From the NCBI GenBank assembly GCA_964610105.1, contig CAZSUU010000003.1, positions 18,417 through 82,416 of the forward strand: a DNA stretch of 64,000 nt. Reading direction: 5' to 3'. The notes below the pieces were generated by a model. It searched no databases and was not told where the DNA came from. It worked only from the letters and a program-made list of their open reading frames with translations. Below are positions 23,252 through 60,257 of this stretch, one piece after another (position 1 is the first letter of the stretch; each line of letters begins with the position of its first letter). Source of the DNA: an uncultured Verrucomicrobiota bacterium (GTDB lineage Bacteria > Verrucomicrobiota > Kiritimatiellia > PWTM01). A program made the translations under genes and the position numbers.

Positions 23252-23330
23252 GGCGACCCGCGGTCCAATTCGAATGGAATTCGATCCGCAGTCCACACCG
23301 AGGACGCGGGCAGGATTGCCCGCGGTACGG
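23252..23330 (+). repeat. 3' hairpin element copy 1 (GCGGGC-AGGATT-GCCCGC with conserved 5' flank)
   Basis: Shares ggcgacccg...gtccaca.cga.gacgcgggcaggatKgcccgcgg with 47259-47325 and the hairpin core with 41876-41893; lies in a convergent intergenic region. Confidence 0.5.
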
Positions 23331-23454
23331 GTGCTGGGCGTACCGCGCGCAATCCGTCCGCATGAGGCGCGGTGTTGGGGGGGAAGAGAGAAGGCCCCAC
23401 CGCGCTCGATGGCGGTGGGGCCCTCAAGAGAAGCCGGTCGATCAGCCGCGGAAC

Positions 23455-35955: not shown

Positions 35956-35969
35956 GCTCTTCTCCCTAA

Positions 35970-36138
35970 GGCGGCGAGCCGCAACCCAACGGTCCTGGCC
36001 GCTCAATGCCCTCACTCCAGTCCGTCCGTTCCTTCGTGCAACCGCGCCGCCTTCCGAGATTGTTCCGCCACCCATTCCACGGAGGAACCTCACGGAGGAA
36101 GCATCACACGCAACTGCGCCTCATGTTTTGGCGGAACA
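35970..36138 (-). promoter_or_regulatory. Conserved ~170-nt upstream element, copy A (5' leader/promoter module of the GH gene)
   Basis: About 80% identical and colinear with 47994-48162 (core ~88%); ends 14 nt before the GH start codon. Contains tandem cacgga(g/a)(g/a)a motifs and ttgttccgcc...ggcggaacaa. Confidence 0.55.
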
Positions 36139-36639
36139 ATCCAGGGCGGCGCGCGCCGACCGAGCGGTTCCGGTTCACCAGGCCCGTTCTGCACAGGGCT
36201 TTCATGCCGTAACCATGCCAGAACCGGCCCGATCAGGCAAAGACTGTGATAGGCGAGCGCACGCGCGCCGCTCGGGAGTGCCGTGGGTGAGGCAGTCCGT
36301 GTCTGCGCCATCGGCCGGTCAGATGCCCGAGCTCCTCCGAAACGTCCTGACATTGGAAGCGACGCGTTCCGATCGGTCCGCACCTTGGAAACCTCTGGAG
36401 TGCACACCGCTGAAAGACCGTGGCGGAATGCCCCGCCGAATCGACGCTCGGACCTGGCGCACCAGACGTTCCTCAGCGACGGCCGATCTCCCGACGCTTC
36501 GTCCTTGCCTGCGCCGTTGAACCGTCGCAACATCCGATCGGCCGCACCCCGGCAGCGCCTCCTCGCCGATCCGGCGACCGTCGGATGGTTCTGCGACCGA
36601 CGGGGTCGGGCGGCAGCCTGACGCAAAGGAGTACGTGCA

Positions 36640-43800: not shown

Positions 43801-44595
43801 TCACTCGATCGCCGTCACCGTCACGCCATCCCCCGCCCGCAGCTCCATCCGCCGAGCGGCCGACCCGTCGCGGATGGCGATTTCCAGGCGGCCGGACGAA
43901 CCGACGACGACGAGCTTCCTGCCCGGATCGACCTCGGCGTACGTGCGATGGATCTCGTGGAAGAAGTAACTCTTGATTTCGATCATCTTCGACCGGCCGG
44001 CCATGCTCCGGCAGTCTTCGACCCGGATATTCGTAATGGCGTTGCCGAAGTGATCGATGTGGATCACCTCCCCCTCGATCGTCGACGCGTCAGGCCGGCG
44101 GGCGTTCACCCACGGTCCGCGGACGAAATCCTCCACCCTGTCGGCGAGGTCGTCGAACCCGGCCTTCCCCGCCGCCAGCAGGCCGGCGGCCCACGCGAAG
44201 ATGTCGCGGCCGTGGAAGGTCGCCGCGGCCCCCTCCGGTCGACCCACGGACGGCTTGAGGCCGCCGGCCTTGACCGCGGTCGCCTCGGCCGCCACCCAGG
44301 AGAAGAGACCGTTATCCGGTCCCACGAACATGTGGCCATCGGCCTCCAGAAGGAGGGCCTTGCGGTCCGTTCCGACCCCCGGATCCACAACGGCCAGATG
44401 GACCGTACCCGCGGGATAGCTCCGCCAGTACTGCCCCAGCACCCACGCGGCGGAGCGGACATCATGGGCCGGCAGGTGATGGGCCGCGTCGATGACCATC
44501 GCCTCCGGCGCCAGCGATAGGATGACGCCCTTGACCGATGCGACATATCCGTCACTCTCGCCGAAGTCCGTCAGCAGAGTCACAATCCGCCTCAT
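43801..44595 (-). CDS. SAM hydroxide adenosyltransferase (DUF62 / chlorinase-fluorinase family)
   Basis: Start MRRIVTLLTDFGESDGYVASVKGVIL (ATG 44595), the canonical N-terminus of the family. Confidence 0.8.
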   Translation of the reverse strand: MRRIVTLLTDFGESDGYVASVKGVILSLAPEAMVIDAAHHLPAHDVRSAAWVLGQYWRSYPAGTVHLAVVDPGVGTDRKALLLEADGHMFVGPDNGLFSWVAAEATAVKAGGLKPSVGRPEGAAATFHGRDIFAWAAGLLAAGKAGFDDLADRVEDFVRGPWVNARRPDASTIEGEVIHIDHFGNAITNIRVEDCRSMAGRSKMIEIKSYFFHEIHRTYAEVDPGRKLVVVGSSGRLEIAIRDGSAARRMELRAGDGVTVTAIE

Positions 44596-44809
44596 AACGA
44601 AGTTCCTCCTCACCCGCGGCCCGCTGCAACCGGACTGCACCGAACGCTCCACGCTCCCACGGGGGGCCCTTCCTCTGCCCGTGCGACGGCGCCATCTTCC
44701 CGCGCCGTTCCGCCGCCCTCTTCCGCGGCGCGTCCGCACGGGACACCTGCCGCGTCTCCGGCCCCCGTCGTGCGGCCGGACACCCGGCCACCGGCTGTCC
44801 TCCGCGCGT

Positions 44810-45298
44810 TCAGAACACCCACGGCAGCATCCGCCATGTCCGACGCCTGTACGCAACATACTCCCGGAATTCCAATTCCAGGAAGCGCTCTTCGCGGCGA
44901 ATCTTCAACACGAGAACCAGGGCCAGCACGGCCCAGCAGAGGCCCATCCAGGCATCCGGGCGCTGCAGCGCCAGCCCCGTGCCGCCCAGCAGGAGCGCCG
45001 TGTACATCGGATGGCGGATCATGCGATACGGCCCGTCCGTGCGCAAGCGGGTTCCGGGCCTGACGTCCGGCAGCATGTACAACTGGCTCAGCCGCATGGT
45101 CGCGACCGCCCACACGCCCAGGAAGAGTCCGACCGACGCGACCACGCCCGCCGCCGGGCGGACCGGCCACCAGGGCGCGCGGACGAGCATGACGAGCGGC
45201 AACAGGATCTGAGCGCAAACCAACGCCCGCGATCCGGCCGCGAGCGCGGAAGGCGCCGTTCCACCGCCCTGATTTCCTTCCTGTCGCATGTTGTACAC
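44810..45298 (-). CDS. Isoprenylcysteine carboxyl methyltransferase (ICMT/PEMT) family membrane methyltransferase
   Basis: TM helices plus GPYRMIRHPMY...EERFL signature of the ICMT/phospholipid methyltransferase family. Confidence 0.7.
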   Translation of the reverse strand: MYNMRQEGNQGGGTAPSALAAGSRALVCAQILLPLVMLVRAPWWPVRPAAGVVASVGLFLGVWAVATMRLSQLYMLPDVRPGTRLRTDGPYRMIRHPMYTALLLGGTGLALQRPDAWMGLCWAVLALVLVLKIRREERFLELEFREYVAYRRRTWRMLPWVF

Positions 45299-45458
45299 GG
45301 GGGGATGAAGCTGCTAGACTGTATCTCAATCACAGCCGGGATGCACGTTGGGCGCGGGCGTTTCCCGTCATGGGTGCGAGGGACCGTGGGCGGCTGTCGC
45401 CCTGCCGCCGCGGCGCGGCCGGGGACGGCGGCGATGAGAAGGAGTCGGAAGGGACGCC

Positions 45459-45704
45459 ATGAAAACGGACGAGGTACGTGCGCGCATCGAAGACGAGGTA
45501 GCTGAATGGCTGCGCCAGGAAGCGGCAAAGCGCCGATGGTCCACCAGCATGATGGTGCGCCACATCATCTACGCGGCATACGATGCCGACAGCAAACGGG
45601 ACACAGAACAGTCGACGGCAGAGCCGGCAACCAAGCGTGCGGCACAAAGACGCGCAACTGCGATTCCGCCTACGGCAGTGCCTACTTCTTCCGTAAGTGC
45701 CTGA
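45459..45704 (+). CDS. Ribbon-helix-helix (CopG/Arc/MetJ-like) DNA-binding protein, RHH1
   Basis: VRARIEDEVAEWLRQEAAKRRWSTSMMVRHII fits the RHH beta-strand/helix pattern; SD GAAGGAG upstream. The C-terminal 17 codons run into the 77-bp repeat with non-native codons. Confidence 0.5.
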   Translation: MKTDEVRARIEDEVAEWLRQEAAKRRWSTSMMVRHIIYAAYDADSKRDTEQSTAEPATKRAAQRRATAIPPTAVPTSSVSA

Positions 45705-45729
45705 TGCCCTCAGCGCAATGAGAAGTGTC
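45653..45729 (+). repeat. 77-bp imperfect direct repeat, copy 1 (contains a duplicated bioD start, atgagaagtgtc)
   Basis: About 88% identical to 46400-46476; low GC (~50%) relative to the genome; internal agtgcct direct repeats. Confidence 0.6.
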
Positions 45730-45760
45730 CGTCAGGATTCGCCGAAGTCCAGGCGACCGG

Positions 45761-46012
45761 CTATAGCCCCGGTCCCTTGCCCACTTGTCCAGCCGCCTTT
45801 GCATGGACACGTCCATCTGCGCCGACAGTAACACCTTCATGTTTCAGCCTCTCCGATACGCACTCCACCACCAGATCGGTGAGCGAAATGCGCCTCTGAT
45901 GTGCGATCACCCACAGCGCGTCCTTAACCTCCTGGTCGATCCACGCGCTCACAATGCGCTTCCTAGATCCGCGTTGGTTCGGCATATTCGCCCCGATGCG
46001 CAGCCCACGCAC
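45761..46012 (-). CDS. Ribbon-helix-helix protein, RHH2 (paralog of RHH1, convergent)
   Basis: RKRIVSAWIDQEVKDALWVIAHQRRISLTDLVVECVSERL; roughly 35% identity to RHH1 over the RHH core; probable start at MPNQRG (45985). Confidence 0.45.
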   Translation of the reverse strand: MRGLRIGANMPNQRGSRKRIVSAWIDQEVKDALWVIAHQRRISLTDLVVECVSERLKHEGVTVGADGRVHAKAAGQVGKGPGL

Positions 46013-46200
46013 AATGAGTCAAAGAGCGGCGTGGAATGCGGCTTCCCCTGTTGTTCCTTGCCTCGCCGTTCCTCTCGTACTCTGTCCTCATGACGCGCAC
46101 TCTGCGGGGTGTTCTACACCGTGTCAACTCTTCTTTTGATAACTTTTTTTAGACTTTCTTTTGACGCCGTGGTAGGCTCGCTCCGAAGGGGAAAACGGGG

Positions 46201-46443
46201 ATGGCAACACGCACGTTCAGCGGCGGAAGATTCCTAACCACCGCCATCGTTGCGCCGGTCGCGGCCGTCGTGGTGGCCTGCCCGTTCTCGACCACCGACG
46301 TTGACTACGAGACGGACTATGGCCCCATCGGAAAGCCGTCGGAGTACACTGCCCGCAGACTCCGAGGAGAGGGCACCCGCACGGTGCTACGCAATGACAC
46401 GCAACTCCGATTGTGCCTACGACAATGCCTACTTTTCTCGTAA
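46201..46443 (+). CDS. Questionable 80-aa ORF, possibly a decayed duplicate; 3' end runs into repeat copy 2
   Basis: Reasonable codon usage for the first ~60 codons, rare codons inside the repeat; follows an anomalous AT-rich patch (46128-46165). Confidence 0.2.
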   Translation: MATRTFSGGRFLTTAIVAPVAAVVVACPFSTTDVDYETDYGPIGKPSEYTARRLRGEGTRTVLRNDTQLRLCLRQCLLFS

Positions 46444-46476
46444 GTGCCTGATGCCCTAAGCGCAATGAGAAGTGTC
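46400..46476 (+). repeat. 77-bp imperfect direct repeat, copy 2 (overlaps the bioD start codon)
   Basis: cgcaactccgattgtgcctacgacaatgcctacttttctcgtaagtgcctgatgccctaagcgcaatgagaagtgtc; the bioD ATG at 46465 lies inside it. Confidence 0.6.
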
Positions 46477-47181
46477 TTCATCACCGGCACCGACACGGGG
46501 GTCGGCAAGACCGTCGTCGCGGCCGCCTTGCTCACCGCGGCGCGCTCCTCGGGGGTGGACGCCGTGCCCATGAAACCCGTGCAGACCGGATGCGTGCACC
46601 ATGGCCATCGGGTCCGCGCGCCGGACCTGGATTTCGCGCTTCGCATGTCGCGGTACAGGGCGATGCCGAGCGAAGAGGCCTTGATGTGCCCCTACCCCTT
46701 TGCCCCTGCCTGTTCTCCCCACCTGGCGGCCGCCATGGCCGGCATCCGGATCTCGACGGAGCGGATCCTCTACCGGTATGCGCGCCTCGCCGCGCGGCAC
46801 AAGGCGGTCGTGGTCGAGGGGGCCGGCGGCGTCATGGTTCCGCTGAACGAGCGCGAGCACATGCGCGATCTGATGCGGCGGCTCGCCCTGCCCGTCGTGC
46901 TGGTGGTCCGCCCCGGCCTGGGCACGCTGAATCACAGCCTCCTTTCCGTCGAGTCGATCCGCTCCGCCGGCCTGGAGCTGGTGGGTCTCGTCGTCGCGCA
47001 TACGGAGGCGGAGAGCGGAGATCCGCGGGTGGCCGCCGACAATCGGAGCACCCTGCGACGCCGGACCGGCGCGGAGATCCTGGCGGTCTTCCCGCGCGCC
47101 GCGACACCTCTTGACGATCCCGCCACCTTCCGACGCCAGTTCCGCAGGCCGGGGCGGGAGCTGCTGCGCCGTCTCGCATAG
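46465..47181 (+). CDS. bioD: Dethiobiotin synthetase
   Basis: MRSVFITGTDTGVGKTVVAAALL P-loop typical of BioD. The ORF track's GTG start at 46444 is an alternative. Confidence 0.85.
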   Translation: MRSVFITGTDTGVGKTVVAAALLTAARSSGVDAVPMKPVQTGCVHHGHRVRAPDLDFALRMSRYRAMPSEEALMCPYPFAPACSPHLAAAMAGIRISTERILYRYARLAARHKAVVVEGAGGVMVPLNEREHMRDLMRRLALPVVLVVRPGLGTLNHSLLSVESIRSAGLELVGLVVAHTEAESGDPRVAADNRSTLRRRTGAEILAVFPRAATPLDDPATFRRQFRRPGRELLRRLA

Positions 47182-47258
47182 GACGAGGTACGGCGGGGCG
47201 GCTGGGCGCCATGATATCGAATCTCTCGTGCCCATGTCGTACGGCCGTTCGCCCCGAT

Positions 47259-47325
47259 GGCGACCCGATTTCGACTGCGATCCTCAGTCCACAGCGAAGA
47301 CGCGGGCAGGATGGCCCGCGGCAGG
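47259..47325 (+). repeat. 3' hairpin element copy 3 (GCGGGC-AGGATG-GCCCGC with conserved 5' flank)
   Basis: ggcgacccg...cagtccaca.cgaagacgcgggcaggatggcccgcgg is colinear with copy 1; 78 nt downstream of the bioD stop, convergent with the ankyrin gene. Confidence 0.5.
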
Positions 47326-47405
47326 GAGTCCAGGAAAGCGGTGCCGCGCGCCATCCTGCGCGCGATCGGCAGGGCGAGCCGTCCCTGAAGAGCCGCCCCA
47401 GCGAT

Positions 47406-47978
47406 TCAGCGGTTGGTTCCCGACGGGGTGACCGCCCGACGGGCGAGGGCATCCCGCAGTTGCTTCTCGATGTCGGGACGGTTCATCCCCCGCACGAAAT
47501 CGAGCGGCGTATAGCCGGCCCTGTCGCGCGCGGTCGGATTCGCGCCCTGCCGAAGGAGGTAGTCGACCACCGTTCCGTAGCCGCGCCGCACGGCGTCGTG
47601 CAGAAGGGTGTTGCCTTCGTCGTCGACGATGTGATCGGGCTTCCACAGGCCCACCGACACCTGTTGCCGCACCTCCGCCAGGCGCTCCTCTTCCCGGCGC
47701 CTCGCCTCCTGCGCCGCGGCGAGGGCCGCGATGTTCTGCTGCACGACCGTCTCTTTCGCCGCCGCCGCCTCCTTGCCCATCGAGCTGGAGGGCGGGGCCA
47801 GTTTCCGGCGGAACCGATACGGGCTCGGTGTCGCCATCTTGCCCTTGGGCGCCGAAGTCGGTTTGAGCGCCGGCTGCGCGGCCGCCTTCTTGGCGTTCTC
47901 CTTGTCGGCGGCCTTCTTATCGGCGGCCGAGACGGCGCACGCCGCCGCCAGAAGCAGGATGACCCATCGCACACTCAT
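47406..47978 (-). CDS. Secreted ankyrin-repeat protein
   Basis: Signal peptide MSVRWVILLLAAACAVSA (ATG 47978); C-terminal ankyrin repeats GNTLLHDAVRRGYGTVVDYLLRQGANPTARDRAGYTPLDF. Confidence 0.7.
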   Translation of the reverse strand: MSVRWVILLLAAACAVSAADKKAADKENAKKAAAQPALKPTSAPKGKMATPSPYRFRRKLAPPSSSMGKEAAAAKETVVQQNIAALAAAQEARRREEERLAEVRQQVSVGLWKPDHIVDDEGNTLLHDAVRRGYGTVVDYLLRQGANPTARDRAGYTPLDFVRGMNRPDIEKQLRDALARRAVTPSGTNR

Positions 47979-47993
47979 GATCCACCGTCCCAC

Positions 47994-48162
47994 GGCGGCG
48001 AGCCGCAACCCCGCGGTCCTCGTCGCTCAGTGCGCCGACCGCGTTCGTTCCGTTCCTCCGTGCAACCGCGCCGCCTTCTGAGACTGTCCCGCCACCCTTT
48101 CCACGGAGAAACCTCACGGAAAACACGATGCGCATCTGCGTGCCATGTCTTCGCGGAACAAG
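47994..48162 (-). promoter_or_regulatory. Conserved ~170-nt upstream element, copy B (5' of the ankyrin gene)
   Basis: Colinear with 35970-36138. Its reading frame differs from the downstream gene, unlike copy A, which argues for a noncoding element. Confidence 0.55.
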
Positions 48163-48257
48163 GTAATGTACTCGTGGCGGGCGGTCTTGGCAACCGCCGC
48201 GCCCCCGCGAAGCGCAGGACGTCCGGCGATCCCGTCGTGAACGCGGAACCGCCCGCC

Positions 48258-55716: not shown

Positions 55717-57414
55717 TTGACGGCAAACGACGATTACATTGTTGAGATCCTGGAGAGCGTCGGTCTGATCACCCGCCGGCAGGGGGAAGAGGCGCTCCAT
55801 TCCGCCCAGCAGGAAGACAAAGACGTGGTGGACATCCTCGTCCGCAACACGGGTCACACCAAGCTGGAGATCCTGAAGGCATTGGCCACGCAATTCGGGA
55901 TGGACACCGTCGACATCAAGTCCATGGCCATCGGGAAGGAGGTCACCGATCTCGTGCCGGCCAAGGTCGCGCGGCGGTACCGCATCGTCCCGTTCGAGCG
56001 CACGGAGACGGCGCTGCGGGTGGCGCTGAGCGACCCGTTCGACGTCGAGACGCTGGACAGCCTCCGCTACATCCTCAAGATGAACGTCGAAGGCGCGGTC
56101 GCCCTGCGCGAGGACATCGACGTCACGCTCGACCAGTACTATCCCCAGGCGAGCGAGGAAATGGCGACGATGCTGCACGACCTCAGCGAGCAGTCCGGCG
56201 CGCCGGGGTCCTCGCTGACGATCGAGGAGACGGTGACCGACGCGGACGAGCCGATCATCAAGCTCGTGAACCTGATCATCCTCGAGGCCTTCCGCCGGCG
56301 CTCCTCGGACATTCACCTGGAGCCGCTGGAGAAGAAATTCCGCGTCCGCTATCGCATTGACGGCGTGCTGCACGAGGTCGAGAGCCCGCCCCGCCGCCTG
56401 CAGTCGGCGATCATCAGCCGCGTGAAGATCATGGCGAACATGAGCATCGCGGAGAAGCGGGTGCCGCAGGACGGCCGCATCCAGATCAACGTGATGAACC
56501 GCGACCTGGACCTGCGCGTGTCGGTGCTGCCCGCCAACCACGGCGAGACGATCGTCATGCGTATTCTCGACAAGAGCAGCCTCATGCTGGGCCTGTCGCA
56601 GCTCGGTTTCTTCTCCGACGACCAGCAGACCTTCGAGCGGCTGATCGCGCTCTCCGACGGCATCCTCCTCGTGACCGGCCCCACCGGCTCCGGCAAGACG
56701 ACGACGCTGTACGCGTGCCTCAACCAGATCAACAAGCCCGACCGCAAGATCATCACGGTCGAGGACCCGGTCGAGTACGTGATGCCGGGCATCAACCAGG
56801 TCCAGGTCCACAGCGACATCGGCATGACCTTCGCCGCGGCGCTGCGATCGATCCTGCGCCAGGCGCCCAACATCATCATGATCGGCGAAATCCGCGACCT
56901 GGAGACGGCGGAGATCGCCGTCAACGCCTCCCTCACCGGCCACCTCGTCTTCAGCACCCTGCACACGAACGACGCGCCCAGCGCCGTCACCCGCCTGATC
57001 GACATCGGGGTCAAGCCGTTCCTCGTGGCCTCCTCGACCCGCGCGATCATGGCCCAGCGCCTGGTGCGCCGCATCTGCCCGAAGTGCAAGGAGCCCTACA
57101 AGCCGAACGAGAGCGAGCTGCACCTGCTCGGGCCGGCGACGGCGCACGTGGCCGCCGCGGAGCTGTTCAAGGGCAAGGGGTGTTCGGACTGCGCCAACAC
57201 CGGATACCGCGGCCGGTGCGGCATCTACGAGATCTTCGTGCTCGACGACATCGTGCGGCACATGATCAACGACCAGGTCGCCGCCGGCGAGCTCCGCGCC
57301 CAGGCGCGGCGGCTCGGCATGCGCACGTTGCGCGAGGACGGCCTGCGCAAGGTCGTGGCGGGCACGACCACGCTGGAAGAGGTCTTCCGCGTGACCATGG
57401 GGGACAAAGACTGA
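55717..57414 (+). CDS. pilB: Type IV pilus assembly / type II secretion ATPase (GspE/PilB family), paralog 1, TTG start
   Basis: Walker [10 protein letters not shown], Asp box, His box, tetracysteine CPKCK...CSDC, N-terminal GSPII_E_N-like domain. No in-frame ATG upstream of the first conserved block. Confidence 0.9.
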
Positions 57415-58520: not shown

Positions 58521-60257
58521 ATGGCCGAGAATCCCAGTGAAATGCGGGCATCCGAAGCGAAGGACTATCTGCTGCAGCAGGTCCTGGCGGAGGGCATCAT
58601 CACGGCGGAAGTTGCCGGCGAGGTCATGGAGGAGCACAAGCGCACGGGCAACCCGGTGCGCGAGCTCCTGGTCGACATGGAGATCATGACCGAGGACGAG
58701 CTGCTGGACTTCATCGCCCGGCAGATGGGCACCTACGTGATCGACCTGGTCTCGCAGCCGCCCGACCGCGAGCTCGCCAAGCTGATCCCGGCCAGCGCGG
58801 TCCGCATGTACAACGTCGTCCCCGTCGAGGGCGAGGGCAACGCCATCACCCTGGCGACCGCCGACCTGCTCAGCCCGGAGGTCATCGACGAGCTGGTGTT
58901 CGTGCTCACGCGCGACATCAGCTACGTCATCGCGAAGTCGAGCGACATCCGGCACGTGATCAAGGACCTGTACGGCGACGTCAAGGACTCGGTCGGCGAC
59001 ATGCTCTCCCAGCTCGAGGCCGAGCTGCAGGAGGCGGGCGACATCCTGGACTACAACCGCGCCAAGGCGGGCGACGTGATCGACCTGGAGCAGATCGCCA
59101 ACCAGGCCCCCGTGGTCCGGTTCGTCAACCTGGTGCTGTACCAGGCCGTGCAGGACCGCGCCTCGGACATCCATTTCGAGCCGTTCGAGAACGAGTTCAA
59201 GATCCGGTACCGGGTGGACGGCGCCCTCTACGAGATGGCCCCCCCGCCGAAGCAGCTCGCCCTGCCGGTCATCTCCCGCGTGAAGGTCATTTCCGGCCTG
59301 AACATCGCGGAACGCCGCCTCCCGCAGGATGGCCGCATCAAGCTCACCATCGCGGGCCGGACGATCGACTTCCGCGTTTCCACCCTGCCCACCCAGTTCG
59401 GCGAGAGCGTGGTGCTGCGTATTCTCGACCAGAGCACGGTCCAGCTCGACCTGGAGAACATCGGCCTGCCGGACGACATCTACGAGACGCTGACGTTCGA
59501 CATCAGCAAACCCAACGGCATCATCGTGGTGACGGGCCCCACGGGGTCCGGGAAGACGACGACCCTCTATGCCGCGCTGAAACGGTTGAACACCATCCAG
59601 GACAAGCTGCTGACGGCGGAGGATCCCGTCGAGTACGACATCGAAGGGATCATGCAGATCCCGGTCCACGAGGGCATCGGCGTCACGTTCGCCCGCATCC
59701 TCCGGTCCTTCCTGCGCCAGGATCCCGACATCATCCTCGTCGGCGAGATCCGCGACAAGGAGACGGCCGAGATCGCCATCCAGGCCTCGCTCACCGGCCA
59801 CCTGGTGTTCAGCACCCTGCACACCAACGACGCGGCCGGCGCCATCACCCGCCTCATCGACATGGGCGTGGAGCCGTTCCTCATCGCGTCCACCATGGAG
59901 GCCATCCTCGGCCAGCGCCTCGTGCGGACCATCTGCCCCCACTGCAGGCAGTCCTACCAGCCCGAGAAGGACGTGCTGGACATGCTGAACCTCAAGCCCG
60001 ACCAGGTCGGCGATCGTCCCTTCCACTTCGGCGCCGGCTGCAAGCAGTGCAACGACACCGGCTACCGCGGCCGGCGGGGCATCTTCGAGTACCTGCGCAT
60101 GACCGAGCCCGTGCAGGCGCTCATCAACCAGCGCAAACCCACCCTGGTGATCCGCGACAAGGCGGTGGAGATGGGCATGCGCACCCTGCGCGAGGACGGC
60201 ATCCGCTGTATTCTGGACGGCTACACGACCGTCGAGGAAATTTTGAAGTATACTTAG
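58521..60257 (+). CDS. GspE/PilB-family secretion ATPase, paralog 2
   Basis: 578 aa, same motif set as paralog 1 ([15 protein letters not shown]...CKQCNDTGY); about 45% identity by eye. Confidence 0.9.
   Translation: MAENPSEMRASEAKDYLLQQVLAEGIITAEVAGEVMEEHKRTGNPVRELLVDMEIMTEDELLDFIARQMGTYVIDLVSQPPDRELAKLIPASAVRMYNVVPVEGEGNAITLATADLLSPEVIDELVFVLTRDISYVIAKSSDIRHVIKDLYGDVKDSVGDMLSQLEAELQEAGDILDYNRAKAGDVIDLEQIANQAPVVRFVNLVLYQAVQDRASDIHFEPFENEFKIRYRVDGALYEMAPPPKQLALPVISRVKVISGLNIAERRLPQDGRIKLTIAGRTIDFRVSTLPTQFGESVVLRILDQSTVQLDLENIGLPDDIYETLTFDISKPNGIIVVTGPTGSGKTTTLYAALKRLNTIQDKLLTAEDPVEYDIEGIMQIPVHEGIGVTFARILRSFLRQDPDIILVGEIRDKETAEIAIQASLTGHLVFSTLHTNDAAGAITRLIDMGVEPFLIASTMEAILGQRLVRTICPHCRQSYQPEKDVLDMLNLKPDQVGDRPFHFGAGCKQCNDTGYRGRRGIFEYLRMTEPVQALINQRKPTLVIRDKAVEMGMRTLREDGIRCILDGYTTVEEILKYT

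Follow-up and report, generated by a model that had tools for sequence, protein, structure and literature searches.

The dethiobiotin synthase gene bioD of an uncultured Verrucomicrobiota bacterium lies in a 64,000-nucleotide (nt) stretch of DNA (GCA_964610105.1, CAZSUU010000003.1:18,417-82,416, forward strand; hereafter the window), where it is divergent from a gene encoding a PEMT/ICMT-family methyltransferase (here ICMT). One lineage of this species has horizontally acquired about 1.0 kb of DNA of lower GC content (45440/45454-46464), which lies between the intergenic region that separates ICMT from bioD and the start codon of bioD; the bioD reading frame was left untouched. The locus is a real islet of foreign DNA, sharply delimited and specific to one lineage. 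It sits at the first codon of bioD, has 93-nt ends that resemble attachment (att) sites and carries a cargo of orphan genes resembling ribbon-helix-helix (RHH) proteins. It is a genomic islet of a small and ordinary kind whose junction is uncommonly tidy.

The locus was compared with contigs of two sister strains drawn from a 90% BioD protein cluster (L030 and L031, 97.3% nucleotide identity to the window; L032 and L033, 95.7%) and with an outgroup locus, L052, whose BioD is 57% identical and whose SAM_HAT, ICMT and divergent bioD genes are arranged in the same way around a 66-nt spacer without an insert. Homology with L030 and L031 runs to 45438 and homology with L032 and L033 runs to 45453; in all four sister contigs it restarts at 46465, exactly at the bioD ATG. 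Between these junctions the sister strains carry only CCGGAAGGGTGAGTGGGGGTGTCCGCGCCGGGGAGGGTCGG, a stretch of 41 nt in which a canonical GGAGG lies six nt ahead of the ATG. The insert has taken the place of the final 32-41 nt of the native bioD leader, and with them the ribosome-binding site GGGGAGGG has been lost. Across the sister strains and the outgroup the spacer between ICMT and bioD measures 66-257 nt and contains none of the RHH genes, no counterpart of the 80-codon open reading frame (ORF) of the insert (ORF80) and no 81-nt arm of the 93-nt repeat. The remaining 12 nt of that repeat, ATGAGAAGTGTC, are present once in the sister strains, at the bioD start, and the other 81 nt are missing there. 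The presence of an empty site in the sister strains and in a syntenic outgroup therefore identifies the segment of about 1.0 kb as a lineage-specific foreign insertion. Comparison with related bioD upstream regions had been suggested in a preliminary description of this DNA; it yielded these empty sites, and orthologues with the same arrangement as the window were not seen.

The window and L030 have diverged less from each other than either has from L032, and both share a 177-nt indel that is missing from L032; the empty state is therefore ancestral. The insert is lower in GC content (59% vs 68%), and the GC content at third codon positions of its ORFs is 0.61-0.75 vs 0.85-0.95 in native genes. 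Neither clustering of single-nucleotide polymorphisms nor excess divergence was found in the flanks, where the nearest polymorphisms lie at 45281 and 46528, and a diverged allele was therefore not brought in here by homologous replacement. An assembly artefact was ruled out by five independent public contigs that span both repeat copies and are 100% identical to the window; among the public contigs of the strain none differs from it.

The encoded BioD differs from the sister-strain proteins at 3-7 residues, and the nucleotide differences are mostly synonymous. Alignments of BioD homologues start at residue 2-3, and the N-terminus common in the clade is M[KR]SVFIT (most often M[KR]SVFITG), in agreement with the earlier proposal that the downstream repeat copy holds the real bioD start. 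Beyond the species, the closest BioD proteins are at most 60% identical and come from metagenome-assembled genomes of Kiritimatiellia, Lentisphaerae or Verrucomicrobiota. The bioD loci of 22 GTDB species representatives were also compared and proved too distant for use as empty sites, with BioD at most 55% identical and no synteny, RHH/ORF80 matches or repeat matches.

The sequence of the left junction runs GATGAG-AAGGAGT-CGGAAGGG-ACGCC-ATG, which can be read either as native GATGAG and native CGGAAGGG around a net 6-nt change, or as a degenerate, vestigial third core of the repeat (ATGAGAAGGAGTC compared with ATGAGAAGTGTC). The 8-mer ATGAGAAG is present at this junction, with 0.066 occurrences expected. 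The retained intergenic DNA presumably still carries the native divergent promoters, which now lie upstream of RHH1, the first gene of the insert. The coordinates of all features are listed in Table 1.

Table 1. Features of the ICMT-bioD locus, numbered from the first letter of the window (aa, amino acids)
Feature	Position	Strand	Description and evidence
PEMT/ICMT-family methyltransferase gene	44810-45298	-	Native, divergent from bioD; Pfam PEMT E = 1.8e-10; synteny in L030, L031 and L052
Retained native ICMT-bioD intergenic DNA	45299-45438	.	97-98% identical to L030/L031 to 45438, to L032 to 45453
Left junction zone	45434-45453	+	ATGAGAAGGAGTCGGAAGGG; alignment and indel placement; two possible readings
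Insert, minimal	45454-46464	.	1011 nt; lineage-specific, foreign; empty site in L030, L031, L032, L033 and L052
Insert, maximal	45439-46464	.	1026 nt
Unit A	~45440-45729	+	About 280 nt; TCGGAAGGG, RHH1, repeat copy 1
RHH1	45459-45704	+	81 aa, putative ribbon-helix-helix; Pfam FitA-like_RHH E = 8.9e-4, sub-threshold; weak Arc-like PHROG matches
Repeat copy 1	45637-45729	+	93 nt; ends in orphan ATGAGAAGTGTC at 45718-45729
RHH3	45682-45840	-	52 aa, RHH-like; Pfam RHH_1 E = 0.015; NCBIfam aCcr1 E = 0.014
Unit B	45730-46476	both	747 nt; RHH3 and RHH2 (-), AT-rich region, TCCGAAGGGG, ORF80, repeat copy 2
RHH2	45761-45985	-	Putative RHH, 74 aa from ATG (83 aa from GTG at 46012); Antitox_RHH E = 0.088; ORF56 E = 0.0038 (NCBIfam)
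AT-rich patch	46128-46165	.	26% GC; between divergent RHH2 and ORF80; candidate divergent promoter/operator
ORF80	46201-46443	+	80 aa, no family; no Pfam match; weak lipoprotein-signal NCBIfam match E = 0.41
Repeat copy 2	46384-46476	+	93 nt; makes up the entire present bioD leader; ends in the bioD start
bioD	46465-47181	+	Dethiobiotin synthase, native, intact; Pfam AAA_26 E = 5.7e-44

Two units with a common 93-nt end

The insert is a composite of two units that are alike only in a 93-nt end and a short ribosome-binding-like motif. The motif is found in the similar ribosome-binding regions of RHH1 and ORF80, TCGGAAGGG and TCCGAAGGGG, and the end in the two copies of a direct repeat. A repeat search returned a single family with two ungapped copies, 85% identical over 93 nt and spaced by 747 nt, and these are the only two copies within the 64 kb. 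The 77-bp repeats of about 88% identity in the preliminary description correspond to the core of this longer alignment (68/77 = 88%); the GC content of about 50% given for them is close for copy 2 (51%), and copy 1 is higher (57%). Within the sharp boundaries of the repeat, identity climbs from the 5′ to the 3′ end (73%, 83% and 97%): the 5′ part matches at 43 of 56 positions (13 differences) and the 3′ part at 36 of 37, with one base different. Shuffles of the window never contained the 37-nt 3′ block, of which the window itself has two occurrences. As had been noted from the outset, the orphan ATGAGAAGTGTC of copy 1 is the same as the bioD start in copy 2, and the stop codons of RHH1 and ORF80 both fall within a repeat copy.

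Direct repeats 747 nt apart, together with ORFs that end inside them as in integron cassettes, would be compatible with integron cassettes bearing attC sites or with tandem duplication, in situ, of the region upstream of bioD. We regard both as next to negligible. The weak similarity of 60-65% over about 150 nt upstream of the repeats, on which an old tandem duplication had been proposed, is random (in-register identity 0.23 vs a null of 0.27 ± 0.04). The units are not homologous along their length, as in-register identity outside the 93 nt is 0.17-0.37 and thus at null level, and the repeat arms are missing from the native locus; the duplication is therefore rejected. The resemblance to integron cassettes and to clusters of attC sites lacking integron integrases (CALIN) extends to units of 0.3-0.75 kb, a short ribosome-binding region, an ORF ending in a 3′ site of about 90 nt and no integrase nearby. 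However, the repeat here is without the imperfect palindrome and hairpin of attC and without R′ and R″ core sites. Apart from one 12-nt chance pair, no inverted repeats were found in 45200-46700; folding of both copies as single-stranded DNA on both strands gave no hairpin (z = -1.04, -0.35, +0.11 and -0.08); and direct reading of the repeat found no GTTRRRY core. No intI was found among the ORFs scanned, which comprised those of the insert and about 45 major ORFs of the window. Folding, the absence of inverted repeats and of intI, and a copy number of only two rule out an integron attC or CALIN origin. An insertion sequence or miniature inverted-repeat transposable element was likewise rejected: inverted repeats are absent, and the 12-nt duplicate belongs to the 93-nt repeat, the other 81 nt of which are missing from the empty site.

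The repeats might instead serve as duplicated operator or leader modules to which the RHH proteins bind through four phased YGCCY motifs, so that RHH1 and the ORF80-bioD pair come under common control. Such a role fits either of the origins considered below, and we consider it unlikely. The four motifs are placed identically in the two copies (spacings 12, 19 and 7 nt); the copies have drifted apart in their 5′ part but hardly differ over the 3′ 37 nt; and three RHH-like genes adjoin the repeats. On the other hand, autoregulating RHH repressors usually bind at their own divergent control region, and at the divergent control region of RHH2 and ORF80 the conserved k-mers of the repeat are not above chance. 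The two AGTGCCT motifs described for each repeat are present in copy 1, whereas copy 2 has one AGTGCCT and one AATGCCT; the heptamer is not enriched in the window (3 observed vs 4.8 expected). The RHH fold itself is weakly supported. As for the suggestion that the RHH proteins also regulate the ICMT gene, the analysis produced no evidence for it.

The divergent control region contains the anomalous AT-rich patch of the preliminary description, where the low GC content was confirmed by measurement. Inside the patch lies a 9-nt direct repeat, TTCTTTTGA, at 46131-46139 and 46156-46164 (25 nt apart), and a second direct repeat, ACTCTG, is found between RHH2 and ORF80 at 46079 and 46099 (20 nt apart). 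Both are candidate RHH operators, and both are unrelated to the 93-nt repeat.

Repeat copy 2 has given bioD a new leader. It contains stops in all three frames before the bioD ATG (TAA at 46441, TGA at 46449 and TAA at 46457, 8 nt apart). The end of the last stop is separated from the ATG by 5 nt, the stop of ORF80 lies inside the copy 21 nt before the ATG, and direct reading shows that no Shine-Dalgarno sequence is left. In copy 1 the third stop position reads TCA in place of TAA, a single-base difference; on the opposite strand the same base turns a TAG stop into GAG, adding 9 codons to RHH3. RHH1 now occupies the former position of bioD behind the native upstream DNA that was retained, 20 nt downstream of it. 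Transcription of bioD would then depend on read-through or on a promoter within the insert, and its translation would be Shine-Dalgarno-independent and could involve re-initiation after the stops, which lie 5-21 nt ahead of the ATG. A scan of 45200-46600 for consensus sigma-70 promoters and terminators returned nothing. Rfam searches gave only a chance small nucleolar RNA match in 44500-47500 (E <= 1) and nothing at gathering score in the whole window, in which no tRNA or tmRNA was found either.

Small genes of the insert

The insert carries ORF80 and three ORFs that are RHH-like, the latter assignments being putative. The preliminary description had listed two RHH ORFs. RHH-type matches were indeed obtained for both, yet all fall under the Pfam gathering scores, and the number of such ORFs is three. 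The one that had been missed, RHH3, has its RHH core at residues 2-38; its start sits within the 3′ tail of RHH2 in a different frame, and its last 16 or so codons are antisense to repeat copy 1. The description of RHH1 and RHH2 as paralogues did not hold up (BLASTP E = 4). In public gene calls RHH1 is annotated in 4 contigs, RHH2 in 1 and RHH3 in none, and ORF80 in all 16, including the NCBI record.

Among PDB sequences RHH2 matched SvtR (2kel) weakly, with E = 0.36; sequence searches of the PDB were otherwise uninformative. Single-sequence AlphaFold2 models of RHH2 and RHH3 are coil-helix-helix with pLDDT values of 72-73 (73 for RHH3). The RHH2 model superimposes on the Arc repressor (1par, 1bdv) at 0.7-0.8 Å over 36 residues, with a Foldseek probability of 0.85-0.90 and E > 1, and a VapB structure is among its Foldseek matches; for the RHH3 model Foldseek gave no informative match. 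The insert ORFs resemble the Arc, CopG and antitoxin RHH repressors in their size (45-80 aa), in two helices predicted to follow an N-terminal strand region, and in the fit of the RHH2 model to Arc. They differ from them in that their matches are sub-threshold, that no homologues are available for a profile, and that dimerisation and DNA binding are putative.

No relatives of these proteins were found. RHH1 and RHH2 matched only themselves among 5.8 billion proteins, and RHH3, searched against 1.84 billion representatives, gave no genuine homologue, the matches being low-complexity and in multiple stretches. ORF80 may have a signal peptide; on direct reading, a hydrophobic stretch is followed by a lipobox-like VVAC. 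Billions of proteins yielded no detectable relative of the three RHH-like ORFs or of ORF80, which are typical strain-specific 'ORFan' cargo, and the three RHH proteins are most likely small autoregulatory repressors of the insert's own genes.

Since the best weak matches are of antitoxin type (FitA-like at 8.9e-4, Antitox_RHH at 0.088, VapB among the Foldseek matches) and the overlap of RHH2 and RHH3 resembles the gene pair of a toxin-antitoxin operon, a decayed toxin-antitoxin or addiction cassette was considered, in which the RHH ORFs would be orphan antitoxins whose toxins have been lost. This is very improbable. No insert ORF matched a toxin, recombinase or defence family in Pfam, NCBIfam, PHROGs or PADLOC, the last giving only weak PDC-S02 matches for RHH1; the gene downstream of RHH2 is another RHH gene and not a toxin gene; and 1 kb leaves no space for a toxin gene. 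The earlier proposal of a decayed antitoxin-only remnant accordingly finds no positive evidence, given the missing toxin domain and the weakness of the antitoxin-type matches. An intact type II module was ruled out, because none of the four libraries placed a toxin gene adjacent to the RHH ORFs.

Origin of the insert

The reading that we favour, at a probability of roughly 45%, is that two related mini-elements with att-like 93-nt ends accreted in tandem at the bioD start, or that a pre-formed array of two such units was captured at once. Recombination would have passed through the near-identical 37-nt 3′ core that ends in ATGAGAAGTGTC. The right-hand repeat copy would thereby have rebuilt the bioD start and brought in a new leader, in the manner of integrative elements that target gene ends, with a recombinase acting in trans or with the element now a dead scar. 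We favour this model because the 12-nt match to bioD belongs integrally to both copies, forms their best-conserved part, starts exactly at the ATG and lies in a target that is conserved in the clade. Direct repeats bound unit B and the empty sites carry a single core, which is the pattern of attL and attR in an integrative element. The partial third core ATGAGAAG at the left junction was also counted in support. In addition, the 13/56 differences in the 5′ part of the repeat are too many for copies formed in situ after insertion (Poisson p ~0.005 under a generous neutral rate, with a split of about 2.7% from L030), and the copies were therefore already diverged on arrival.

Several observations weigh against this model. 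No integrase, transposase, phage gene or other recombinase was found in the insert or among the scanned ORFs of the window. The insertion was not conservative, as 32-41 native nt are gone and the left side retains no full repeat copy, only ATGAGAAGGAGTC; a simple attP x attB event predicts neither. The preliminary proposal of a site-specific insertion that regenerated the bioD start is upheld in substance by the empty sites, but for these reasons its 'site-specific' element is not shown. Relatives of the repeat or of the insert ORFs were found nowhere else, be it in a second genome, a virus, a plasmid, a phage or a JGI metagenome, and mobility is therefore unproven: an 18-mer from the repeat, searched by exact match, was not found in viral contigs and gave 8 matches in JGI metagenomes, all with unrelated flanks, and the insert DNA had no match in plasmid and phage collections. 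Exact-protein look-ups of BioD, ICMT, RHH1 and RHH2 among public contigs revealed no intermediate with a single unit and no excised state. Known integrative elements are also far larger than these units of 0.28 and 0.75 kb. Finally, all Pfam scores of the RHH-like cargo are below the cut-off (19.6 vs 27 bits for RHH1, 13.4 vs 27.2 for RHH2 and 15.7 vs 20.5 for RHH3).

An alternative that we hold to be doubtful, yet keep alive because native nucleotides were lost, no recombinase was found in the scanned ORFs and no relatives were found, is illegitimate capture in one step. A linear foreign fragment with an internal 93-nt duplication would have been joined, after transformation or in repair, through microhomology at GATGAG/CGGAAGGG on the left and ATGAGAAGTGTC on the right; the repeats would have no att function, and the match to bioD would be the microhomology that was used. 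The replacement of 32-41 nt and the short identities at both junctions suit such an event, as does the lack of a further repeat copy in the window, viral and JGI metagenome searches. By our own arithmetic, chance alone should produce many 12-nt matches between a genome of a few Mb and a fragment of 1 kb. Double illegitimate recombination driven by microhomology has been documented for short patches (bioRxiv 10.1101/2023.11.22.568220); the documented events, however, add tens of nt and not 1 kb. Moreover, the 12-nt match to bioD coincides with the conserved end of both repeat copies and starts exactly at the ATG, which would be a tidy coincidence if due to chance, and the clade-conserved target M[KR]SVFIT suits a dedicated site. 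The islet is a small-scale variant of the known gene-end-targeting integration, or possibly an illegitimate capture.

Among the known systems closest to the att-like model are the dusA-specific integrative elements (islands and IMEs), which insert in the 5′ end of dusA, provide a fresh promoter and put the gene back in frame (PMC8409611). The shared features are the extreme 5′ end of a conserved housekeeping gene as the site, imperfect direct repeats, new upstream sequence and an intact frame. The dusA elements, in contrast, are at least 20 kb long, encode a tyrosine integrase and a directionality factor and have a repeat of about 21 bp (PMC8409611), compared with units of 0.28 and 0.75 kb, no such genes found and 93 bp here, where native DNA was also lost at the left junction. 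Cis-mobilizable elements (CIMEs) and tandem accretion (PMC5704250) offer a parallel for two related neighbouring units without a recombinase, with att-like copies between and bounding them; here, however, the left-most att copy is a vestige of at most 13 nt, no helper element was identified, and the size is an order of magnitude smaller. Integration beside a start codon also swaps the native upstream region of a host gene in the case of prophage HK022, which provides a promoter for the adjacent torS gene (PMC6814406). That element is a full prophage with a mapped promoter, whereas the promoter scan found none here.

In its furthest-reaching form, the att-like model would describe a non-integron cassette system. 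The two units would be the first known members of a class of integrase-less mini-cassettes of about 0.3-0.75 kb, each made up of a small ORF set and a non-palindromic att-like end of about 93 bp, the final 12 nt of which mimic the bioD start. Such cassettes would be inserted by a recombinase in trans and accrete in tandem precisely at the start codon of a conserved housekeeping gene, rewiring the leader and placing their first ORF behind the host promoter, with the RHH proteins as regulators or directionality factors. We consider this extension decidedly unlikely.

Should the att-like model be true, site-directed capture of very small gene units would be possible at a start codon, and the ribosome-binding site and leader of a housekeeping gene could be swapped, with its ORF unharmed, by way of sites unlike integron attC. 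Should illegitimate capture be true, a neat 1-kb islet of orphan genes would have become fixed in one lineage. The strains with and without the insert also form a natural near-isogenic pair in which the expression of a bioD gene without a Shine-Dalgarno sequence can be studied in a bacterium of the Planctomycetes-Verrucomicrobia-Chlamydiae (PVC) group.

Surroundings of bioD

The 177-nt indel mentioned above is a second small insertion near a start codon. The segment of about 177 nt (47988-48164) lies 9 nt upstream of the ATG of an ankyrin gene (47978, minus strand); it is missing in L032 and L033, which have 'gtct' in its place, and is present in contig L051 of the L030 strain. It is an 80.6% copy of 35968-36142, which is situated about 12 nt upstream of the ATG of a GH106 rhamnosidase-like gene. 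Both copies have two long predicted stems (9 and 13 bp), with single-sequence z values of -0.77 and -2.5 and no Rfam match. The segment may be a mobile structured 5′-leader element.

A dispersed repeat of 79 nt, 81% identical between its copies, is located in the bioD-ankyrin spacer (47278-47356) and at 23282-23355. Near 47354-47358, where this repeat has its 3′ edge, synteny with L030 is lost. On the downstream side of bioD, L030 (7071-10961) carries a gene of 435 aa, DUF6788 and DUF169; in L051 (5755-8134) the ankyrin gene is followed by an ORF of 149 aa and SerRS, and a 275-nt inverted segment is common to L030 and L051. The synteny break and the gene differences in the L030 strain therefore mark the bioD neighbourhood as a strain-variable rearrangement hotspot.

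Across the window, the approximately 45 major ORFs scanned are all housekeeping or uncharacterised. They include genes for a V-type ATPase subunit, lpxA, radC, hflX, miaA, lspA and a dksA-like gene, as well as ileS, mutY, exbBD, pgi, ilvBH and glgC. Two paralogous ATPase genes of the type II secretion/type IV pilus kind (T2SSE and MshEN domains), at 55717-57414 and 58521-60257, share 68.5% DNA identity over 1 kb and are followed by a T2SSF gene.

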